Translations under genes and position numbers: made by a program | Notes under the pieces: model-generated | Told to the model about the DNA's origin: nothing | The model's database searches: none | Seen by the model: the letters and a program-made list of their open reading frames with translations, nothing else | Assembly (NCBI GenBank): GCA_964574655.1 | Contig: CAZNOH010000001.1 | Coordinates: 535,020 to 599,019, forward strand | DNA: 64,000 nucleotides | Direction of reading: 5' to 3' | DNA from: an uncultured Candidatus Saccharibacteria bacterium | GTDB lineage: Bacteria; Patescibacteriota; JABMPQ01; JAQVVF01 | In this document: positions 4,176 to 18,674 of the stretch, in pieces | How positions within the stretch are numbered: position 1 is the stretch's first letter | How the letters are laid out: the number at the start of each line of letters is the position of its first letter

Positions 4176-5099
4176 TTATTTACTTTTAAACCATTCATAA
4201 GTCATTTTAAGCCCGTCTTCTAATTTTACTTTTGGCTCCCAATTTAATTCTTGTTTAATCTTTGTGTTGTCTATGGCACTTGTTTTTTGATCACCTAGTC
4301 TTGCCTCTCCATGTTTTTCAGAAATACTTTGACCTGAAATTTTGGTTAGATTCTGAAAGATAGCATTAATATCTGTTTGAATTCCTGTGCCGACATTATA
4401 AATATTTTGTGATTTTTCGCTTTTTAAAGCTAGCAGATTTGCGTTTGCAACATCTTTGACAAAAACATAGTCTCTTGTACATTTGCCATCGCCGTTGATT
4501 ATTGGTTGTTCATTATTCACAATCTTTTGGCAAAAAATTGCAACAACTCCTGCTTCACCAAAAGGATCTTGCTTTGGACCATAAACATTGGCATAACGTA
4601 GAATAGTATAGTTTAACTTATTTAGAAAATTGAAGCAATATAAATATTTTTCAACGGCTAATTTTGTGACACCATAAGGAGAGACAGGTTTTGCTTCGTA
4701 ATTCTCTGGAGTTGGTAAAACATCAGCATCGCCATAAAGAGCGCCGCCTGTTGAAGCGAAAATTAGCTTTTTGATATTATGTTTTATTGCTAATTTAAAA
4801 ATATTTATTGATCCTAAAATATTATTTTCAGCATCACTGATTGGATCTTTGACAGATTCTGGGACTGAGGCATGAGCTGCCTGATGGCAAATGTATTCTG
4901 GCTTTTCTTGTTCGAAAATCTTTTCTATTTCATCAAAATTCTTAATATCTGCTTGATAAAATTTTGCTTTTTCATTTAAGTTTTCTTTTTTGCCAGTTGA
5001 TAAATTATCAATAATAACTACCTCATTGTTTTCTTCAATTAGTTTATCAGCAATGTGCGAGCCAATAAACCCCGCACCACCTGTAATTAATATTTTCAT
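4176..5099 (-). CDS. NAD-dependent epimerase/dehydratase (GalE-like UDP-sugar 4-epimerase family)
   Basis: GGAGFIGSH Rossmann motif plus a YxxxK catalytic region (YGVTK); sits inside the sugar-nucleotide cluster. Confidence 0.7.
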   Translation of the reverse strand: MKILITGGAGFIGSHIADKLIEENNEVVIIDNLSTGKKENLNEKAKFYQADIKNFDEIEKIFEQEKPEYICHQAAHASVPESVKDPISDAENNILGSINIFKLAIKHNIKKLIFASTGGALYGDADVLPTPENYEAKPVSPYGVTKLAVEKYLYCFNFLNKLNYTILRYANVYGPKQDPFGEAGVVAIFCQKIVNNEQPIINGDGKCTRDYVFVKDVANANLLALKSEKSQNIYNVGTGIQTDINAIFQNLTKISGQSISEKHGEARLGDQKTSAIDNTKIKQELNWEPKVKLEDGLKMTYEWFKSK

Positions 5100-5140
5100 A
5101 GTTTTATTTTTATGGTTAAAGATTAAAGATAATAGTAATT

Positions 5141-6502
5141 TTATATTTTGACCTTTTTTCCTGTTTCATGCATTTTTCTAATCTTATAGGGCGCACCGAT
5201 TACGTTCTCATATTTATATCCCATTTTTTCAAACATTTCTTTTGAGATTGGCCTTTTCTTGCCATATTCAACGACGTATAAATTTTCAGCGCCATCTTTA
5301 ATTAGTGTTCCGTCTCTAAATAAAACTGGACTGCCTGTTTTTAATTTGTTTAATGTCTGTTGAGATACTGCAACTAAATTATTTGGATCAAATTGATTAT
5401 TATAAATTATATTACTAATGATCGACCTTTTTTGGCTATTTTCTAATAAATATTTTATATTAGATTTTTTTTCATAGACAACAGTACCATCGATTGGAAA
5501 AACTGTGATTTTTGTAATACGTGAGCCTTTTTTGTAGAATTTTTTTCCGTTGGCATCAATTGGTTGAGCGTTTTTTTTATGATATCCGAGTATTTTAAAT
5601 ACTTTTTCTGATTGAAAGCGCCTAATAGTTTGATGACTAATAATAAAATAATTATTGTTTTGATCATACAATAATGTGCCATCTGGAAAAATTGTTGGTT
5701 TGCCGGTTAAATACTTGTCTTGACCTGTTGAAATTGTTATTGCTTGGGTCTCTTTATATTTTGATGCAAACGTAATTCTGTCAGAAAGAAAAGGCTTTTT
5801 CTTTTCATTTTGCAAAATGTAAAGAGTATTGTCGCCTTCTACTTTTAATAAGGTTCCATTTGGATAGTAATTTGCAAACCAATTTGTCCAAATCTGCCAG
5901 AACAGAAAATTGCCGTTGCCTGAGTCATCAATAGTTGCACCTTTGCCTGCTCCAGCATGTGGAGTGTAATTATATAATCCGGCTGTTGCATCATTCTTCG
6001 GAGTGATAGTGTAGCCGTCTGAAGTTGTTTTTGTGACTCCTTTTTGATAGCCATAGTATTCTGGATGATCAATGTACTGTCTGAATTGCCAAGTAGCACT
6101 GTCAATTTGCTTGAAAACGCCTTGATATTTGTATTGGATAGGATTAAATCGATCAAATACAGCATAGCCCATTAAATATTTCTTTTGATAATCTGTTAAA
6201 CTTGAATCAGTGATTGCACTTTGTTCTTTTTGAGCTGTAGCAATTATTAATTTCGGATTTATTTCATATTTTTGCGCTGAATCATAAATAATTTTTGCAA
6301 CGCTTTTGCCATTATATTTTAGCACTGCCAATTCACTTCCTTTTTTAATCAAGAATTTTTGGATTGCTGATTTTGTAAGTGATTTGGAATTTGTATATTC
6401 TTCATCTGTTAAAACATTGTCTGGATTAAAATATGCAGCCATTGAATTATGGGCTGAGATAAAAAAAAGGAATAGTGCGACAATTATTGTTTTTGTTTTC
6501 AT
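5141..6502 (-). CDS. secreted hypothetical protein with repeated (F)PDGTLL beta-strand motifs
   Basis: N-terminal signal peptide (MKTKTIIVALFLFFISAHNSMA); PDGTLLKV / PDGTLLYD / RDGTLIKD repeats; no known catalytic motif. Confidence 0.4.
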   Translation of the reverse strand: MKTKTIIVALFLFFISAHNSMAAYFNPDNVLTDEEYTNSKSLTKSAIQKFLIKKGSELAVLKYNGKSVAKIIYDSAQKYEINPKLIIATAQKEQSAITDSSLTDYQKKYLMGYAVFDRFNPIQYKYQGVFKQIDSATWQFRQYIDHPEYYGYQKGVTKTTSDGYTITPKNDATAGLYNYTPHAGAGKGATIDDSGNGNFLFWQIWTNWFANYYPNGTLLKVEGDNTLYILQNEKKKPFLSDRITFASKYKETQAITISTGQDKYLTGKPTIFPDGTLLYDQNNNYFIISHQTIRRFQSEKVFKILGYHKKNAQPIDANGKKFYKKGSRITKITVFPIDGTVVYEKKSNIKYLLENSQKRSIISNIIYNNQFDPNNLVAVSQQTLNKLKTGSPVLFRDGTLIKDGAENLYVVEYGKKRPISKEMFEKMGYKYENVIGAPYKIRKMHETGKKVKI

Positions 6503-6520
6503 TTTTTATTTAATATAATA

Positions 6521-6616
6521 CAAATAAACGTACGAATAATGCAAATGATACGAATTACGAATCGACGAATTTGCAATTCGCAACATTCGCATTATTCGTA
6601 TTTTCATTCGTATTTT
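6521..6616. repeat. ACGAAT-word palindromic intergenic element
   Basis: Inverted arms built from acgaat/attcgt words around a tcGACGaattt centre; related blocks at about 12160-12200, 24925-24990 and 27995-28065. Confidence 0.5.
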
Positions 6617-6617
6617 G

Positions 6618-7496
6618 TTAAAATAATGTTTTTTCGTTGGCAATTTTTATCAAATACTGGCCATACTGATTTTTGCTAAGAGGTTCAGCTAATTTTAGCA
6701 ATTGTTTTTTATTAATATAGCCATTGCTGAAAGCAATTTCTTCAAGACATGAAACTTTTAGTCCTTGTCTTTTTTCAATAGTTTGAATGAAATTTGATGC
6801 ATCTAAAAGACTTTCATGAGTGCCGGTATCTAACCAAGCGAATCCACGTCCTAGCATTTCTAGTTTTAATTTTTTTTCATTCAAATATAATCTGTTTAAA
6901 TCTGTTATTTCCAACTCACCTCTTGGCGATGGTTTTAATGATTTAGCTTTTTTAACTACGCTATTATCGTAAAAATAAAGTCCGGTAATTGCATAATTTG
7001 ATTTTGGATGTTCTGGTTTTTCTTCAATGCTCAAAACTTTGCCTTTTTTATCAAATTCAGCGATACCATATCTTTCTGGATCGTTAACATAATAGCCAAA
7101 AATTACTGCACCTTTTTTTATGCGAGCTGCTTTTCTCAGCATATCTTGAAAACCGTGACCATAAAATACATTATCGCCTAAAATTAGACTGACACTATCT
7201 TTGCCGATGAATTTTTCACCAATTATAAATGCTTGCGCCAATCCATCTGGAGATGGTTGAATTGCATAAGAAATTTTTAGGCCAAACTTTTTTCCATTGC
7301 CTAATAAATCTTTATAAGTACTGATGTCTCTTGGAGTTGAAATGATTAAAATTTCGCGTATCCCTGACAGCATTAAAATAGACAAAGGGTAATAAATCAT
7401 CGGCTTGTCGTAAATCGGCATGATCTGTTTTGAGATGCTCTGGGTGAGCGGATATAATCTTGTTCCTGATCCTCCTGCTAGAATAATGCCTTTCAT
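6618..7496 (-). CDS. rmlA: glucose-1-phosphate thymidylyltransferase
   Basis: [17 protein letters not shown]-terminus characteristic of RmlA/RfbA. Confidence 0.85.
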
Positions 7497-7518
7497 ATAT
7501 TTAGTGTTATCGCTAAAA

Positions 7519-7650
7519 ATTCAAAACTCTAAATCCTAAATTCTAAATAAACTCAAATTTCCAAAATCAAAATGCTAAACTTGACGATGGTTTTCTTTAT
7601 TTTGAATTTAGAATTTATAATTTATTTAGAGTTTAGGATTTAGGATTTTC
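7519..7650. repeat. long imperfect palindromic element (CTAAAT/ATTTAG-word family) overlapping the rmlD 3' end
   Basis: Left arm aaactctaaatcctaaattctaaataaactcaaatt pairs with right arm aatttagaatttataatttatttagagtttaggatttagg; homologous copies at about 22134-22280 and 42086-42199. Confidence 0.55.
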
Positions 7651-14437: not shown

Positions 14438-15886
14438 CTATTTTTGGTCTAGCTGATACATTTTATACAAGCTGACAATTAACCCCATAGCTATCCAATA
14501 AAATATATTAAGCATATTTGTAACTAAATACAAGGAGAAAAGCAGGCCAACACAGGTTGCAACGTAAAATGCAAATAAAGCAATTAATTCAGGCATTTCT
14601 TCAATTTTGGTTTTGTAGAGCTTAATAAAATATTTTATTAAATAATAATTGATAAATAAAAATGGAATAAGACCGATGATTCCAGCTTGAATTAAGACTC
14701 CCAATAGCTCATTATGCAAAGCACGCATTTCTACAGTTGAAACAAATCCTTTGAATTCGACATTAAGCATTTTTCCAAAACCAATACCTAGAATTGGATT
14801 TTTGGCATATTGCACTAATCCTTCTTGCCAGGCTTTCAAACGCCAGCCAGCTGCTTCCTCGATGTTGCCAGATTTTAGAGTAAATAAAGACTGAACTCTT
14901 TCTGTAAATCTTTGCGCATAAGTAGAGGCTTTAATATTTATATCTGCATTTAACATGGCTGTAATCCAGATGAACAATGAAAAAACAATTAGGACAACGA
15001 GCAAAATTCCAAAAATATTTTTCAAAGCAACTTTTCTTTTTTCTTTGTCTGATAAGAGAAAAATTGTGGCAAGGCCGGATAAAAATCCAAGCCAAAGATG
15101 TCGATGCATACCAGCAACAATGCCAACTGATTGGACTAAAATGACTGCTTGAGTTTTGATGTGGCCATAAATTTCTTTGCCATATATTAAAAAGACTATT
15201 GCAATAAAGACTGGCAGTAAAAGATAATAGGTATGCGTCTGAGCTAAGAATCTTGTTCCTGGAGTAAATTCACTCCACAAACCATTTCCAGTAGCTAAGC
15301 CATAAATAACAAAGCCAATTAAAATAATACCGCCTGCAAGAAAAACTTTGATAATTCTTTTGAACTGAACTTTTGTTCTAATTATAAATATTGTTAAAAA
15401 TAAAATTAATAAATAGCTGTAGTTCTTAAATGTTGCTAAAGCTAATTCTTTGTCAGGATTTTTGATAATGCTATAAACTAGAGCTGCTATCAAGGCTAGA
15501 AAAAAGATGAATGTTGCTTTTTCTAATCTGGTGTATCTTATTTCTTTACTATTGAGATTTCCAAAATGATGAATCAAAAAACTGATAAAAGTAATAATTA
15601 GCAAAACGTCAATTGGATAAATCTTGTAGATATTAATGTCTAGAATAATTGGCTGCAAGGTAAAGAATCTTTCATAAATCATTGTACAAAGGATAATTGT
15701 GTACAAGCCAACTTCTGGGACTTTTAGAATAAATAACGAGGCAAATCCAATTCCGAAAAGATATAAATAAATATTAAAAGGTATAAAAAGGGTTGGTAGG
15801 ATAAAAATGCTGACATAAATAAAACAAAGCACAGTATAGATTGTGGATTTTGATAAATTCTGAATTTTGTTTTTGATTGATGCCAT
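14438..15886 (-). CDS. O-antigen ligase/polymerase-like polytopic membrane protein (Wzy_C-like)
   Basis: About 10-12 predicted TM helices with a large loop; context among GT4 genes. Confidence 0.5.
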   Translation of the reverse strand: MASIKNKIQNLSKSTIYTVLCFIYVSIFILPTLFIPFNIYLYLFGIGFASLFILKVPEVGLYTIILCTMIYERFFTLQPIILDINIYKIYPIDVLLIITFISFLIHHFGNLNSKEIRYTRLEKATFIFFLALIAALVYSIIKNPDKELALATFKNYSYLLILFLTIFIIRTKVQFKRIIKVFLAGGIILIGFVIYGLATGNGLWSEFTPGTRFLAQTHTYYLLLPVFIAIVFLIYGKEIYGHIKTQAVILVQSVGIVAGMHRHLWLGFLSGLATIFLLSDKEKRKVALKNIFGILLVVLIVFSLFIWITAMLNADINIKASTYAQRFTERVQSLFTLKSGNIEEAAGWRLKAWQEGLVQYAKNPILGIGFGKMLNVEFKGFVSTVEMRALHNELLGVLIQAGIIGLIPFLFINYYLIKYFIKLYKTKIEEMPELIALFAFYVATCVGLLFSLYLVTNMLNIFYWIAMGLIVSLYKMYQLDQK

Positions 15887-15957
15887 ATCAGTATATGTTT
15901 TTAGATTAACATAATTTTTGAATAAAAAAAAGCAGTATTAAATTGGTAACTGCTTGA

Positions 15958-16024
15958 TGGTGCCCGGAGCGGGATTCGCCCTGCCATGAAGGCAGGGCGC
16001 CCCGCCCTTGTGGCGGGGCGAACC
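15958..16024 (-). pseudogene. partial duplicate of the tRNA-Leu 3' end interrupted by two GC-rich mini-hairpins
   Basis: tggtgcccggagcgggattcg (identical to the tRNA 3' terminus), then ccctgccatgaaggcagggcg and ccccgcccttgtggcggggcg, then aacc. Confidence 0.5.
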
Positions 16025-16066
16025 CAAATTATAAGCAAAAAAAACAGCACATTACTATGCTGTTGA

Positions 16067-16150
16067 TGGTGCCCGGAGCGGGATTCGAACCCGCATGTCT
16101 TGCGACGGAGGATTTTAAGTCCCCTGCGGCTACCTTTTCGCCATCCGGGC
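16067..16150 (-). tRNA. tRNA-Leu (anticodon TAA), long variable arm, CCA encoded
   Basis: Reverse complement folds as a cloverleaf: acceptor GCCCGGA/TCCGGGC, anticodon loop CTTAAAA, long variable arm, T-arm GGTTCGAATCC. Confidence 0.8.
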
Positions 16151-16272
16151 TGAAGGAACAGAAGGTACGCGTTTTTTGTAACATTGCATTATACTACAAT
16201 GGCCAAATTTGTCAATGTTTTGTGCTTACAAATCTCACGAATGCCTTAAGCTCGAATAACACTAATATACGA

Positions 16273-16554
16273 AACTCGGTTTTTTCTTGTTTAAGGCTCG
16301 GCTTTTTACTTAAAGATTTAATGTATTTTTATATTATTTTTGCTAGATAATTATAATTTTGAAACATGTGCAAAGCCGAGCCTTTTAAATCAATGCTCTT
16401 ACTATAAATTAAAAGGTTCGGCCTTATCAAAAATCCATATCTAAATTGCTTAACAAAATTATTCTAAGATATGTATTGTTTTCTTCAATCAAAAGACCGA
16501 ACCTTGTACTAAAAAATTCATTCTTTAACTCTCATTCTTTGAACTCGGTTTTCG
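16273..16554. repeat. nested inverted-repeat pairs bounded by a direct repeat, between tRNA-Leu and the high-GC block
   Basis: AACTCGGTTTT at 16273 and 16542; AAGGCTCGGCTTT (16293) vs AAAGCCGAGCCTT (16372); AAGGTTCGGCCTT (16411) vs AAGaCCGAACCTT (16491). Confidence 0.45.
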
Positions 16555-16691
16555 AAAAAGCATTGGAGTGAGCACAAAAAAAGAGCCCACTGAAAGTGAA
16601 CTCTTGAAGGAACGAACGCTGAAAGAACTGGAATTGTTGGAGAGAAGCCGCACCCGACGCACTTGCGTTTGTCGGATGGGAACTGAAGATT

Positions 16692-17276
16692 CTAGGGGAG
16701 CTTGAGGTAGTGGCCGCCGGAGGGATCCGACATGATCTTGAGACCATCGTAGACGTTGCATCCGACGACGGTCAGCCAGTCTTCGCCACTCCGAGGCCAC
16801 GCGGAATCGACACCAGCAGGAATCATCGCGCAAGCACCGTTGTTCGCCGTCTGCAGAGCGCAGACCGGCTCGACCCCAGGAGGCATGCACCCGAAGGTCC
16901 ACGCACCGAGGCCGACGATGTTGCCGCAGATCTGGCCGTTGTCGATCCACACCTCGCATATATCGGTGTCGGGCGGATTGTTGGGCACGCACTGGGTCTG
17001 GCCCGCCTGGCACTCGTTGCCACCTTCGCCTTCGCCCTCGCAGCCGCAGTCGCACCCCTCGCCCTCGCCTTCGCCACCGTCCACCACGCCACTGTCCGTC
17101 TCACCCTCGCCCTCGTTGCCCTCACCTTCTCCTTCTCCCTCACCTTCACCCTCGCCCTCGACGCCCTCACCCTCGCCCTCGTTGCCGTTGTCCTCCATGT
17201 CCTTCTCGCGCAGGGCGCAGTTCGTGTTGATGATCGTCAGGCCGAACAGGATCCACATCGTCGCGCGCTTCATCAC
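16692..17276 (-). CDS. secreted protein with (EG)n repeat and Cys-rich C-terminal domain, in the high-GC island
   Basis: GGAGGAGG RBS; N-terminal signal peptide; GEGEGEGEG tract; 14 cysteines; GC-rich codon usage unlike the host. Confidence 0.5.
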   Translation of the reverse strand: MMKRATMWILFGLTIINTNCALREKDMEDNGNEGEGEGVEGEGEGEGEGEGEGNEGEGETDSGVVDGGEGEGEGCDCGCEGEGEGGNECQAGQTQCVPNNPPDTDICEVWIDNGQICGNIVGLGAWTFGCMPPGVEPVCALQTANNGACAMIPAGVDSAWPRSGEDWLTVVGCNVYDGLKIMSDPSGGHYLKLP

Positions 17277-17351
17277 AGCACCTCCTCCTCTCTCGTTGAC
17301 TCACCCGAACCGGGCGCTCGACTCCTTGCGAAGCCGAGCGCCCGGACGACT

Positions 17352-18416
17352 CTAGAACCGCACGCCGAAGTTACCGGCGCCGGACTTGATCATCTGCCAC
17401 CCACGCCGGTCCTCCACGTCACCCTTGAGCTCGCCACGCATCTCGTAGATGAACGACCAGCCCTCGAGCTTCGCGAGTTCTCCGACGAATCCCACGCCAC
17501 CACCGACCTCACCGCGACCGAAGTACATGTGGGTGTCGAGGTCGAACGTCCTGCCGATCAGACAGAAGTGTGGCTTGATCCACTGCTTCCAGTCGTACTC
17601 GGCGTTCAGCTCGAACCCGGCAGCACCGACCTCGTTGGCCTTGCCGTACTGCGCGCCCACCCCGATGGTCCAGCTCTCGCTGACCGGGAAGTTGACACGG
17701 AGCATGGCTCCGACGAAGTTGTCGCGCTCGGGGCTCCAGAGGTACTGTCCGACCAGGTCGTAGGTGATGTTCACCTTGGCCTCGCCGTCGTCACCCCTGC
17801 AATCCATCACGTCGCACTTCGTGTCCTTGTTCACGTCCTCATCACCATCACACTTGTAGTTTTCATTGCTGTCCCAGCACTGGACCGACGGCTTGGGCAG
17901 GCAGTCTTCCACGAGCCGGATGATAGCACCGCGCTGCCCTTCCTGGGCTCGCGTGAACATCGTCCCCTCGCGGATTCTGTTGCCGTTGACACCGATCTCC
18001 ATCAGCTTGTTCATCATGTAGCTCGCCCGCGCCCGCGCCCGAACAGCCCTGAGCGGATCCTGACCCCCAGCAGCGCGCACCTCTGCGGTGCCGCCGAACG
18101 GGGTCACGTCCTCCACCCCGCTGACTTCCAGGCATCCGAACTGAGCGGTATCCAGAGTAGCCTTGGCGCCGTTGAGGGCGTCGGTCCACTCCGTCTTCCA
18201 GCTCACGTTCTGCCCGGTCAGGTCGGCGTTGAGGAACGTCCAGATCTTCTTCTGCGCGGTTGCCCGGTCTTCCTCGGCCACGGGGGCCTCGGGAGCCGGC
18301 TGCGCGTAGGCGATCTGTCCCTCCTCGTCGTCCATCCAGAAGTAGTTGTAGGGGTTGATGTTGAAGAAACCGCAGATGAAAACCACCACCATCAGCCAGT
18401 TGATCTTGCGCTTCAT
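17352..18416 (-). CDS. outer-membrane-protein-like protein (OmpA-like segment, Asp-rich Ca-binding-like motif, C-terminal Phe), in the high-GC island
   Basis: RBS GAGGAGG; signal peptide; segment RAVRARARASYMMNKLMEIGVNGNRIR resembles the OmpA C-terminal domain; CDGDEDVNKDTKCDVMDCRGDDGE; alternating beta-strand-like C-terminal half ending GVRF. Confidence 0.45.
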   Translation of the reverse strand: MKRKINWLMVVVFICGFFNINPYNYFWMDDEEGQIAYAQPAPEAPVAEEDRATAQKKIWTFLNADLTGQNVSWKTEWTDALNGAKATLDTAQFGCLEVSGVEDVTPFGGTAEVRAAGGQDPLRAVRARARASYMMNKLMEIGVNGNRIREGTMFTRAQEGQRGAIIRLVEDCLPKPSVQCWDSNENYKCDGDEDVNKDTKCDVMDCRGDDGEAKVNITYDLVGQYLWSPERDNFVGAMLRVNFPVSESWTIGVGAQYGKANEVGAAGFELNAEYDWKQWIKPHFCLIGRTFDLDTHMYFGRGEVGGGVGFVGELAKLEGWSFIYEMRGELKGDVEDRRGWQMIKSGAGNFGVRF

Positions 18417-18674
18417 CGTCTTGCCCTCCTCATCCTCGTTCTCTCGTGTTGTAGGGTCCTAACCCTGTTGTCGGAATCTGTAGAAAGTAACATTGAATAC
18501 TAGCACAATTGAAAAAATTTGTCAACAGGATTTGATGGTTTTACCTTATATAAGCCAAAATTTAACTCTAATTTGTTATAATTATGTTTATTTGGTAAAA
18601 TAGAAGCATTAAGTTATAAGCTATAAGCTATATTTTCTTATTGCTTACAGCTTTTAGCTATAGCTCAAAAAAAC

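Follow-up and report, generated by a model that had tools for sequence, protein, structure and literature searches.

A hairpin-interrupted partial tRNA-Leu copy in a CPR genome as a likely member of a widespread tRNA-loop family linked to small GIY-YIG nucleases

Why should the 3' end of a leucine tRNA gene be repeated a short way downstream of the gene, in a copy that is itself interrupted by two GC-rich hairpins? The question arises from a single locus in the window, by which we mean the whole 64,000-nucleotide (64-kb) stretch of a CPR genome analyzed here (features in Table 1). The window contains TTGATGGTGCCCGGAGCGGGATTCG at two sites and no more, 15954-15978 and 16063-16087, which lie 109 nt apart, against a chance expectation of 0.00. 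The repeat comprises the last 21 nt of the tRNA (21/21 identical) together with 4 nt of its trailer, leaving a gap of only 84 bp. On the plus strand, the partial copy runs into two tandem hairpins, CCCTGCC-atgaa-GGCAGGG and CCCCGCC-cttgt-GGCGGGG, each with a 7-bp stem, a 5-nt loop, and a CG after it, and beyond this 42-bp insert the tRNA sequence picks up again as AACCC (16021-16025). The initial annotation, made from the letters alone, had described much of this, and our reading agrees with it on the exact 21 + 4 nt repeat, on the two hairpin-CG units followed by resumed tRNA sequence (15979-16025), and on a hairpin plus T-run after each copy on the minus strand—the first recovered by a terminator scan and the second by RNA folding, since its 12-nt loop caused the scanner to miss it. 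It had offered two readings of the arrangement, an attL/attR remnant and a tRNA-targeting mini-insertion, which fared differently in the analysis below.

Table 1. Coordinates of the tRNA-Leu gene, the interrupted partial copy, and their flanking signals in the window
Feature	Position	Strand	Basis or remark
Sigma-70-type promoter of tRNA-Leu, TTGACA-16-TATAAT	16188..16215	-	Consensus 12/12
Intact tRNA-Leu(UAA), encoded CCA, T arm GCGGG-TTCGAAT-CCCGC	16067..16150	-	ARAGORN; Rfam RF00005, 55 bits
TCAA trailer and first intrinsic terminator	16037..16066	-	Stem 16043-16064, T-run 16037-16044; terminator scan
AT-rich spacer gcttataattt, from terminator to module	16026..16036	-	Direct reading
GGGTTCG: 3 nt from the end of the 5' T-stem strand plus T-loop nt 1-4	16019..16025	-	Left flank of the hairpins
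GC hairpin, tRNA sense CCCCGCC-ACAAG-GGCGGGG	16000..16018	.	CG linker at 15998-15999 follows
GC hairpin, tRNA sense CCCTGCC-TTCAT-GGCAGGG	15979..15997	.	TTCAT loop also in L082, L128, L182, L189
psi-3' partial tRNA copy: CGAAT + CCCGC + TCCGGGC-A-CCA	15958..15978	-	Exact copy of 16067-16087
TCAA trailer and second intrinsic terminator	15924..15957	-	Stem 15932-15953, T-run 15924-15931; RNA fold

When read in the sense of the tRNA, the copy takes the form GGGTTCG-[HP]-CG-[HP]-CGAATCCCGCTCCGGGCACCA, and comparison of its frame, GGGTTCG-[42 nt]-AATCCC, with GGGTTCGAATCCC in the intact tRNA places the hairpins at TTCG^(CG)AA. The portion retained beyond the hairpins (psi-3') supplies the rest of the T loop, the 3' T-stem strand, the 3' acceptor strand, the discriminator base, and CCA. 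The TTCG of this module begins 44 nt past the end of tRNA-Leu, the family described below having a range of 9-272 nt for the same layout. The window has a base composition of ~31% GC and, going by the names attached to homologues of the neighboring protein, is of Patescibacteria (CPR) type; within its 64 kb the pattern CCCYGCC-N5-GGCRGGG matches these two hairpins only, versus 0.02 matches expected. Folded as RNA, the module is predicted to form a three-way junction (-51.8 kcal/mol, z = -6.15), and both hairpins form in a DNA fold too. In searches against Rfam 15, the tRNA alone reached threshold, with the module scoring at most 23 bits, well under the gathering scores, permissive thresholds included. 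The possibility that the GC hairpins are intrinsic terminators was ruled out, as they are followed by CG and tRNA sequence with no T-run; the two true terminators are separate hairpins, AT-richer than the GC pair.

Syntenic genomes were reached through homologues of the adjacent Wzy-like protein. In L002 (Patescibacteria, Wzy 93% identical), tRNA-Leu(UAA) is trailed by a pair of modules sharing 68 nt of identical sequence, with a different terminator behind each, and an independent Logan contig from another run (L003) starts inside the second L002-type module. L004 (Wzy 83% identical) encodes tRNA-Lys and tRNA-Leu with no module. Sequence comparison shows that the tRNA-Leu promoter is also conserved in both L002 and L004, and no tRNA was found near the gene in the more distant Wzy homologues L059 and L060. 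On the other side of the tRNA, a ~1.9-kb block of 60-65% GC is present in the window, L002, and L004; because all three genomes keep it, the block is real, older, and independent of the module. Delivery of the hairpins by this high-GC island, to which they had originally been tied by their composition, was rejected, as L004 has the island without the module, and the other module-bearing genomes were retrieved through the hairpin pattern or nuclease similarity, with the block not used. An exact-protein search with the Wzy of the window returned no other assembly, and of the high-GC island just the right edge was recovered, as L001.

The hairpin block itself differs between the window and L002 at 8 positions when compared in the same direction and at 6 when one of the two is reverse-complemented; these 6 amount to three compensated base-pair changes, none uncompensated, with both loops identical. 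The block may either have been inverted between its TTCG/CGAA flanks or have been acquired by the two lineages separately in opposite orientations. Despite the close synteny, the anticodon stem and variable arm of tRNA-Leu in L004 differ from those of the window and L002. The first window terminator resembles the one after the tRNA-Leu of L004, and the second resembles the final terminator of L002. We considered a long target-site duplication, as well as a simple model in which the newest module adjoins the tRNA and the native terminator comes last, but the resemblance of the first window terminator to its counterpart in the module-free L004 does not fit cleanly and is not what the simple model predicts.

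A reference scan covering one genome per species with the pattern GGGTTCGCCC-N(10-40)-GGGCGAATCCC returned 52 loci; true hairpin pairs make up about 35 of these, and the rest are chance matches in high-GC genomes. The hosts comprise several classes of Patescibacteria, uncultured Gammaproteobacteria, Syntrophaceae/Smithella, Bdellovibrionales, Chlamydiae, and Elusimicrobia. A metagenome scan using a looser pattern without the T-stem condition recovered at least 120 loci. A scan of viral contigs gave one match, on a 66% GC contig without a tRNA gene or a GIY-YIG match, and there was no sign that the elements are phage-borne. Among the matches listed, 104 distinct places have two perfect stems of at least 5 bp, and at 96 of these the T-loop-like sequence CGA-N-TC follows. 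The resulting architecture, TTCG[hairpin]CG[hairpin]CGA-N-TC, is firmly linked to tRNA genes: 79 of the 96 listed pairs adjoin one, across many phyla, with isotypes that include Ser, Leu, Tyr, Arg, Thr, Lys, Gly, Val, Pro, Asn, and Trp. The mini-insertion reading was therefore essentially right, with the hairpins sitting at TTCG^AA throughout these 96 listed loci, and the generic genome-wide REP that the annotation named as a refuting case was not what we found, with one pair in 64 kb and tRNA linkage of the copies elsewhere.

The listed pairs were segregated by their genomic context. The layout of the window, downstream of an intact tRNA and with a copy of its 3' end, accounts for 27 of the 96; a GIY-YIG gene lies between tRNA and copy in 3 of these and just after in 1, leaving 23 of the 27 listed modules of this layout with no adjacent nuclease gene. 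Another 19 of the 96 listed precede the intact tRNA and come after a copy of its 5' part; here a GIY-YIG gene follows in 12. A further 33 listed pairs are within 300 nt of a same-strand tRNA with no strict match to either layout (adjacent GIY-YIG gene in 7), 4 are at a contig edge (adjacent GIY-YIG gene in 0), and for the remaining 13 no tRNA was found (adjacent GIY-YIG gene in 3). GGG precedes TTCG in 58 of the 96 listed modules, and 7 places elsewhere share the 19 nt + 19 nt hairpin class of the window.

In the upstream layout, the associated ORF spans 78-103 codons, begins 10-50 nt past the interrupted 5' copy, typically with MYYVYIL, and terminates either where the intact tRNA starts or within it. 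Its product is a bare GIY-YIG domain (PF01541, E = 1e-14) whose closest solved structures are the uncharacterized UPF0213 proteins 1zg2 and 1ywl. Members of this large family of small, uncharacterized proteins currently carry only the labels 'GIY-YIG nuclease family protein' and 'putative endonuclease' or the erroneous 'excinuclease ABC subunit C'. The downstream layout is also found complete, in L028 (tRNA-Ser) and L082, where the order is tRNA, nuclease gene, and GGTTCG-hairpins-CGAxTCC-3' acceptor strand; the L082 element follows a tRNA-Leu and, like that of the window, has 7-bp stems and 5-nt loops (ATTAA/TTCAT). As a check on circularity, homologues of the L082 protein were picked by protein similarity alone (607 at E <= 1e-5), and in all five of the 607 that were looked up the gene is tRNA-adjacent and a hairpin-interrupted partial copy is present. 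Two of the five follow tRNA-Glu, whose T loop is TTCAAAT, and are flanked as TTCA-[hairpin]-TG-[hairpin]-CAAAT; two belong to tRNA-Ser(CGA), where the pair interrupts the anticodon loop at CTCG^AAA, and of these one is a tandem double unit; and one lies in the T loop of tRNA-Gln, with single hairpins also in the D and anticodon loops of the copy. The GIY-YIG link is thus observed in loci chosen without regard to hairpins.

Across these loci, the copy bearing the hairpins is always the truncated one, with the intact tRNA adjacent, and the flanking dinucleotide tracks the host loop, being CG at TTCGAAT and CA at TTCAAAT. Because anticodon-loop and TTCAAAT sites are used as well, the target appears to be a YTCG^AA-like motif in loop-coding sequence and not the T loop as such. 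The shared architecture and tRNA linkage make it very likely that the window feature belongs to this family of tRNA-loop double hairpins associated with GIY-YIG genes. A profile of 9 family nucleases found no GIY-YIG gene in any frame of the window and no match in the 21-kb L002 and L004 loci. Because no nuclease gene lies within the 64 kb, the window copy would be either the relic of a decayed element or a non-autonomous copy set in place by a nuclease whose gene lies elsewhere, for which the remainder of the 654-kb genome is a possible source in trans; the copy is probably inert now.

Several loci preserve traces of movement. In L033 and L113, flanking 5' and 3' copies have complementary acceptor strands (GGAGAGG/CCTCTCC and GGAAGGG/CCTTTCC) unlike those of the intact tRNA or tRNAs in between; since the outer copies pair together and not with the inner sequence, resident tRNAs have here been split by insertions that carried their own working tRNA, and in L113 the insertion is framed by two hairpin pairs of the same sequence. 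The D arm and anticodon stem of the 5' partial copy in L021 do not match those of the intact tRNA. Tandem pile-ups of units occur on either side of the tRNA (L002, L019, L094, L120, and L194), and L120 displays one hairpin pair after two different tRNA-Ser genes, with the local 3' end each time. In L041, the nuclease gene is reduced to its last ~35 nt, indicating that nuclease-less forms arise by deletion.

The hairpins are kept up almost entirely by Watson-Crick pairing. Across 45 distinct modules among the matches listed, 99.6% of cells are paired, although the filter demanding at least 5 perfect pairs, together with selection by pattern, inflates this pairing statistic for pairs 1-5; pairs six and seven, which are free of the filter, are paired in 43-45 of the 45 sequences. 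The same modules exhibit Watson-Crick covariation, both sides having changed at 8 pairs, with G-U in only 1 of 765 cells. The block is also the same in either orientation, and its loops ATNC and GNAT are mutually reverse-complementary. This scarcity of G-U and the orientation-neutral block argue that the constraint acts on DNA rather than RNA.

Taken as a whole, these observations lead us to favor the interpretation that 15924-16036 is a nuclease-less module of a widespread, tRNA-loop-targeting selfish family that moves by cut and repair. The mechanism itself, modeled on the architecture and on analogy with the phage enzyme SegB, we hold at roughly even odds. A complete element consists of a stand-alone GIY-YIG gene of ~80-100 codons, a quasi-palindromic hairpin pair of the form CCC...GGG-CG-CCC...GGG, and part of the target tRNA gene in duplicate. 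The hairpin pair always occupies TCG^A(A), usually as TTCG^AAT and sometimes as TTCA^AAT or in the anticodon loop CTCG^AAA of tRNA-Ser(CGA). In the proposed mechanism, the nuclease would cut the TCG^AA motif of the loop with a short stagger; a 2-nt stagger fits because CG (or CA) is duplicated on either side of the hairpins. Repair would use the element-bearing copy as template, with the two tRNA halves as homology arms, and would install the hairpins, the nuclease gene if present, and a duplicate tRNA half, thereby regenerating a working gene. The hairpins would destroy the target in the leftover half, rendering it uncuttable. The regenerated tRNA, by contrast, would remain a target, so that tandem stacks are expected, as with the one module of the window and the two of L002. 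The putative nuclease may recognize hairpin or cruciform DNA, the T arm and both hairpins all being palindromes. Several points count against this interpretation: the presumed target is kept in the intact tRNA, so that the element should cut its own host gene; the 80-100 aa protein is without a DNA-binding domain of the SegB or I-TevI kind; the window and the 21-kb L002 and L004 loci gave no match to the nuclease profile; and the first window terminator has the resemblance to that of L004 noted above.

An alternative that we think unlikely, though it has evidence in its favor, makes the hairpin pair itself the mobile entity: a miniature palindrome, comparable to double-hairpin elements (DHEs) or MITEs, entering TCGA with duplication of CG by some other enzyme or by replication error, with the GIY-YIG gene a frequent passenger and the partial tRNAs surviving insertions. 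The lack of an adjacent nuclease gene at most listed modules would follow naturally, as would the recurrence of one pair after two tRNA-Ser genes with local 3' ends in L120, the single hairpins of similar kind that L196 and L194 carry in D and anticodon loops of their partial copies, and the agreement of the flanking dinucleotide (CG or CA) with the host loop. Set against these are the five of five independently sampled nuclease homologues that have both hairpins and a partial tRNA copy, the origin of the nuclease-less L041 form by deletion, and the wider scatter that a mobile hairpin should produce, given that the window holds a single pair and a tRNA is missing at only 13 of the 96 listed pairs. 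That the host selects the module as a structured RNA—a stable three-way junction whose 3' end, ACCA, resembles that of a tRNA, produced by read-through from the tRNA promoter and acting, for example, as a processing signal, decoy, or small RNA—is improbable. Its very stable fold (z = -6.15), its own terminator, and the compensated changes that keep the hairpins between the window and L002 are compatible with such a role; however, the near absence of G-U (1/765 cells) and a block readable either way point to a DNA constraint, a terminator separates the tRNA from the module, there is no Rfam match, the module is absent in L004, and the link to a nuclease gene points to selfish DNA.

The 3' ends of tRNA genes are classic integration sites (see also 10.1101/2022.07.05.498093), and the exact 25-nt direct repeat of a tRNA 3' end invited the other reading of the initial annotation, in which an integrase-borne island entered the tRNA-Leu 3' end and was then almost wholly deleted, leaving attL/attR repeats 109 bp apart. 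We now regard this as highly improbable and have abandoned it. Only 84 bp separate the repeats, and the conserved hairpin pair breaks the repeat exactly in the T loop; the same architecture across many phyla is accompanied by a GIY-YIG nuclease gene, not an integrase, and there are further modules at the 5' side of tRNAs and within anticodon loops. Moreover, no integrase or recombinase Pfam domain is recorded within 10 kb on either side of Wzy in L002 and L004, no recombinase domain was detected in the six window proteins scanned directly, and no integrase-bearing island bounded by these repeats was seen in a related genome. That the structure is an assembly artefact or chance repeat is scarcely conceivable: the window does come from a metagenome-assembled genome, and no independent contig over its own module was recovered, but chance expectations are 0.00 to 0.02, a second genome, distinct at the species level, and an independent Logan contig have the structure at this locus as well, and it recurs in about a hundred unrelated assemblies among the matches listed.

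Returning to the cut-and-repair interpretation, we tentatively extend it, with somewhat less than even confidence, to a minimal selfish class spread over many phyla, with CPR prominent, in which a ~90-aa UPF0213-type nuclease and a double hairpin home to TCG^AA, sparing the host by carrying a replacement for part or all of the tRNA, and nuclease-less modules are moved in trans. The class is apparently undescribed, in that searches of the open-access literature, with subscription journals mostly falling outside it, turned up no account of hairpin-interrupted partial tRNA copies with UPF0213-type nucleases. Features that appear to be new are the minimal nuclease, the palindromic pair of hairpins, the tRNA repair built into the element, the use of anticodon-loop sites, and a distribution that is chromosomal and spans many phyla.

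If this interpretation is correct, a small feature of a single CPR genome opens onto a large tRNA-targeting family of broad taxonomic reach, and the uncharacterized UPF0213 family would gain a first, testable biological role. It would also explain recurrent partial tRNA genes that are not integrase scars, a matter of consequence for tRNA annotation, and would suggest a route for swaps of tRNA bodies between lineages, accounting for some replaced tRNA bodies. The SegB principle of a nuclease reading the universal T-psi-C motif would thereby be extended from phages to bacterial chromosomes, and a compact nuclease with a defined hairpin site could have practical interest.

The components of these loci resemble parts of several known systems. 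Mitochondrial DHEs of chytrids and fission yeast (reviewed in PMC10085805) likewise consist of two adjacent short GC-rich hairpins in AT-rich genomes; they are thought to be mobile, and their copies are near-identical across species. However, compared by description, they reside in mitochondria, mostly between genes or in rRNA genes, with no reported link to tRNA loops, nuclease gene, or tRNA duplication. REP/BIME-RAYT and IS200/IS605 systems share GC-rich palindromes that often form inverted pairs, many non-autonomous copies, and a small hairpin-flanked enzyme gene. They differ in their HUH/Y1 enzymes, their tens to hundreds of copies per genome, and the absence of a tie to tRNA loops; the window, with its one pair in 64 kb, has no dispersed copies of this kind. 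Integration into tRNA genes by tyrosine or serine recombinases also involves a partial copy that regenerates the tRNA and leaves a direct repeat of its 3' end. The elements described here, in contrast, lack a recombinase, measure 0.1-0.5 kb, have a loop-internal junction filled by conserved hairpins, and include 5'-side copies and anticodon-loop sites. In fractured genes (PMC2677866), a free-standing homing endonuclease gene lies between the halves of a split host gene, similar to the nuclease gene between two host-gene parts here. The host there is a protein gene and split inteins are involved, whereas an RNA gene and a DNA duplication are involved here.

The closest parallel in outline is offered by SegB, a free-standing homing endonuclease encoded within the tRNA cluster of phages T4/T6, where, as here, a GIY-YIG gene lies among tRNA genes. 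This enzyme recognizes a 27-bp site that includes an 11-bp T-psi-C stem-loop motif of tRNA genes, cuts to leave 2-nt 3' overhangs, and spreads together with neighboring tRNA genes (PMC2330249). Its cleavage motif, RAWTSGAAC, is the T loop reverse-complemented, and tandem amplification of tRNA and segB is SegB-dependent (PMC13096335). A T-psi-C-centered target, a 2-nt stagger, and co-spread of tRNA sequence are correspondingly proposed for the present elements, in which tandem units are observed. Unlike SegB, a phage protein with a DNA-binding region (cloned coding fragment 687 bp), the proteins here are bare UPF0213-type domains of 80-100 aa encoded on bacterial chromosomes, with an activity that is here only proposed; the window, moreover, differs from a SegB-like locus in having no GIY-YIG gene in cis, and SegB loci in turn are without the hairpin pair and the hairpin-interrupted partial tRNA copies. 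Conceptually, the family is a variant of those GIY-YIG homing elements, free-standing like SegB, whose recognition site is the T-psi-C motif.

Beside tRNA-Leu(UAA), we found a high-GC block at the same position in three genomes: that of the window and those of L002 and L004, two syntenic Patescibacteria loci. Its right junction is spanned by an independent Logan contig. Two ORFs are encoded within it, neither with a Pfam match; the larger begins with a hydrophobic, signal-peptide-like stretch (MKRKINWLMVVVFICGFF...), while the product of the smaller, with its Glu/Gly repeats and Cys-rich tail, resembles a lipoprotein. The window and L002 versions of the 354-aa protein share only 64% identity, against 93% for the flanking Wzy protein. 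A similarity of ~45 nt links the tRNA-Leu promoter region to the region upstream of the high-GC operon, reaching past the -35 and -10 hexamers (AAATTTGTCAA ... CAATGTTAC); a copy of the tRNA promoter may drive these foreign-looking genes.

Coordinates of features at the tRNA-Leu locus and in related or divergent loci
Feature	Location	Description
High-GC block	window 16620-18470; L002 ~4800-6800; L004 ~5700-7600	about 63% GC within 31% GC genome
ORF in high-GC block		354 aa, minus strand
ORF in high-GC block		194 aa, minus strand
tRNA-Leu promoter region	window 16178-16222	
Region upstream of high-GC operon	window 18487-18532	
tRNA-Leu(UAA)	window 16067-16150; L002 7034-7117	84 nt
tRNA-Leu(UAA)	L004 8087-8175	89 nt
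Moderate-GC genes, tRNA-Leu to Wzy	L002 7632-9880	two, 269 aa and 419 aa
Moderate-GC gene, tRNA-Leu to Wzy	L004 8578-9831	one, 417 aa
Inverted spacer motifs	window 16230-16560; L004 7640-7820 and 8260-8400	
Hairpin pair in tRNA-Ser(CGA) anticodon loop	L194 1000-1900; L199 1050-1520	
Single GC hairpins in D and anticodon loops	L196 1040-1140; L194 1040-1080	
Divergent GIY-YIG gene upstream of tRNA-Trp, with single long hairpin	L011 2200-2760	

The interval from tRNA-Leu to Wzy holds moderate-GC genes in both relatives and none of these in the window (compared at 15886-15924). Among them, the 419-aa product of L002 is paralogous to the 354-aa protein of the high-GC block, with which it shares 37% identity across 142 aa (E = 4e-24). 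The tRNA itself is longer in L004 than in the window and L002; its acceptor and T arms are identical to theirs, but it departs from them in the anticodon stem and in the variable arm, a pattern consistent with replacement of the tRNA-Leu body in one lineage. The AT-rich spacers around the tRNA carry recurring inverted motifs of the AAACTCGGTTTT / AAGGCTCGGCTTT / AAAGCCGAGCCTT type, which may be bound by a protein or make up a further small family of repeats.

Beyond this locus, L011 and L022 encode a more divergent GIY-YIG gene, accompanied by a different type of hairpin, single and long (CCCGCCTCTC-GC-GAGAGGCGGG), that replaces the tRNA segment running from anticodon loop to T loop; partial copies are repeated downstream of tRNA-Trp. 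At L008 and L013, on a Dehalococcoidia chromosome (OY762959.1, 67% GC), fragments of the tRNA-Ser 3' end form arrays whose T-loop frame holds very short hairpin pairs of 3 bp; these may be degenerate members of the tRNA-loop double-hairpin family in a high-GC genome.

Among loci reached through GIY-YIG nuclease homologues, the partial tRNA-Ser(CGA) copies of L194 and L199 carry the hairpin pair in the anticodon loop (CTCG^AAA) rather than the T loop, and L194 has two such units in tandem, with one nuclease gene per unit. At L196 and L194, partial tRNA copies contain GC hairpins of this kind singly (for example, TCCTGTC-ATCC-GACAGGA), placed within their D and anticodon loops; the basic insertion unit may be a single hairpin.
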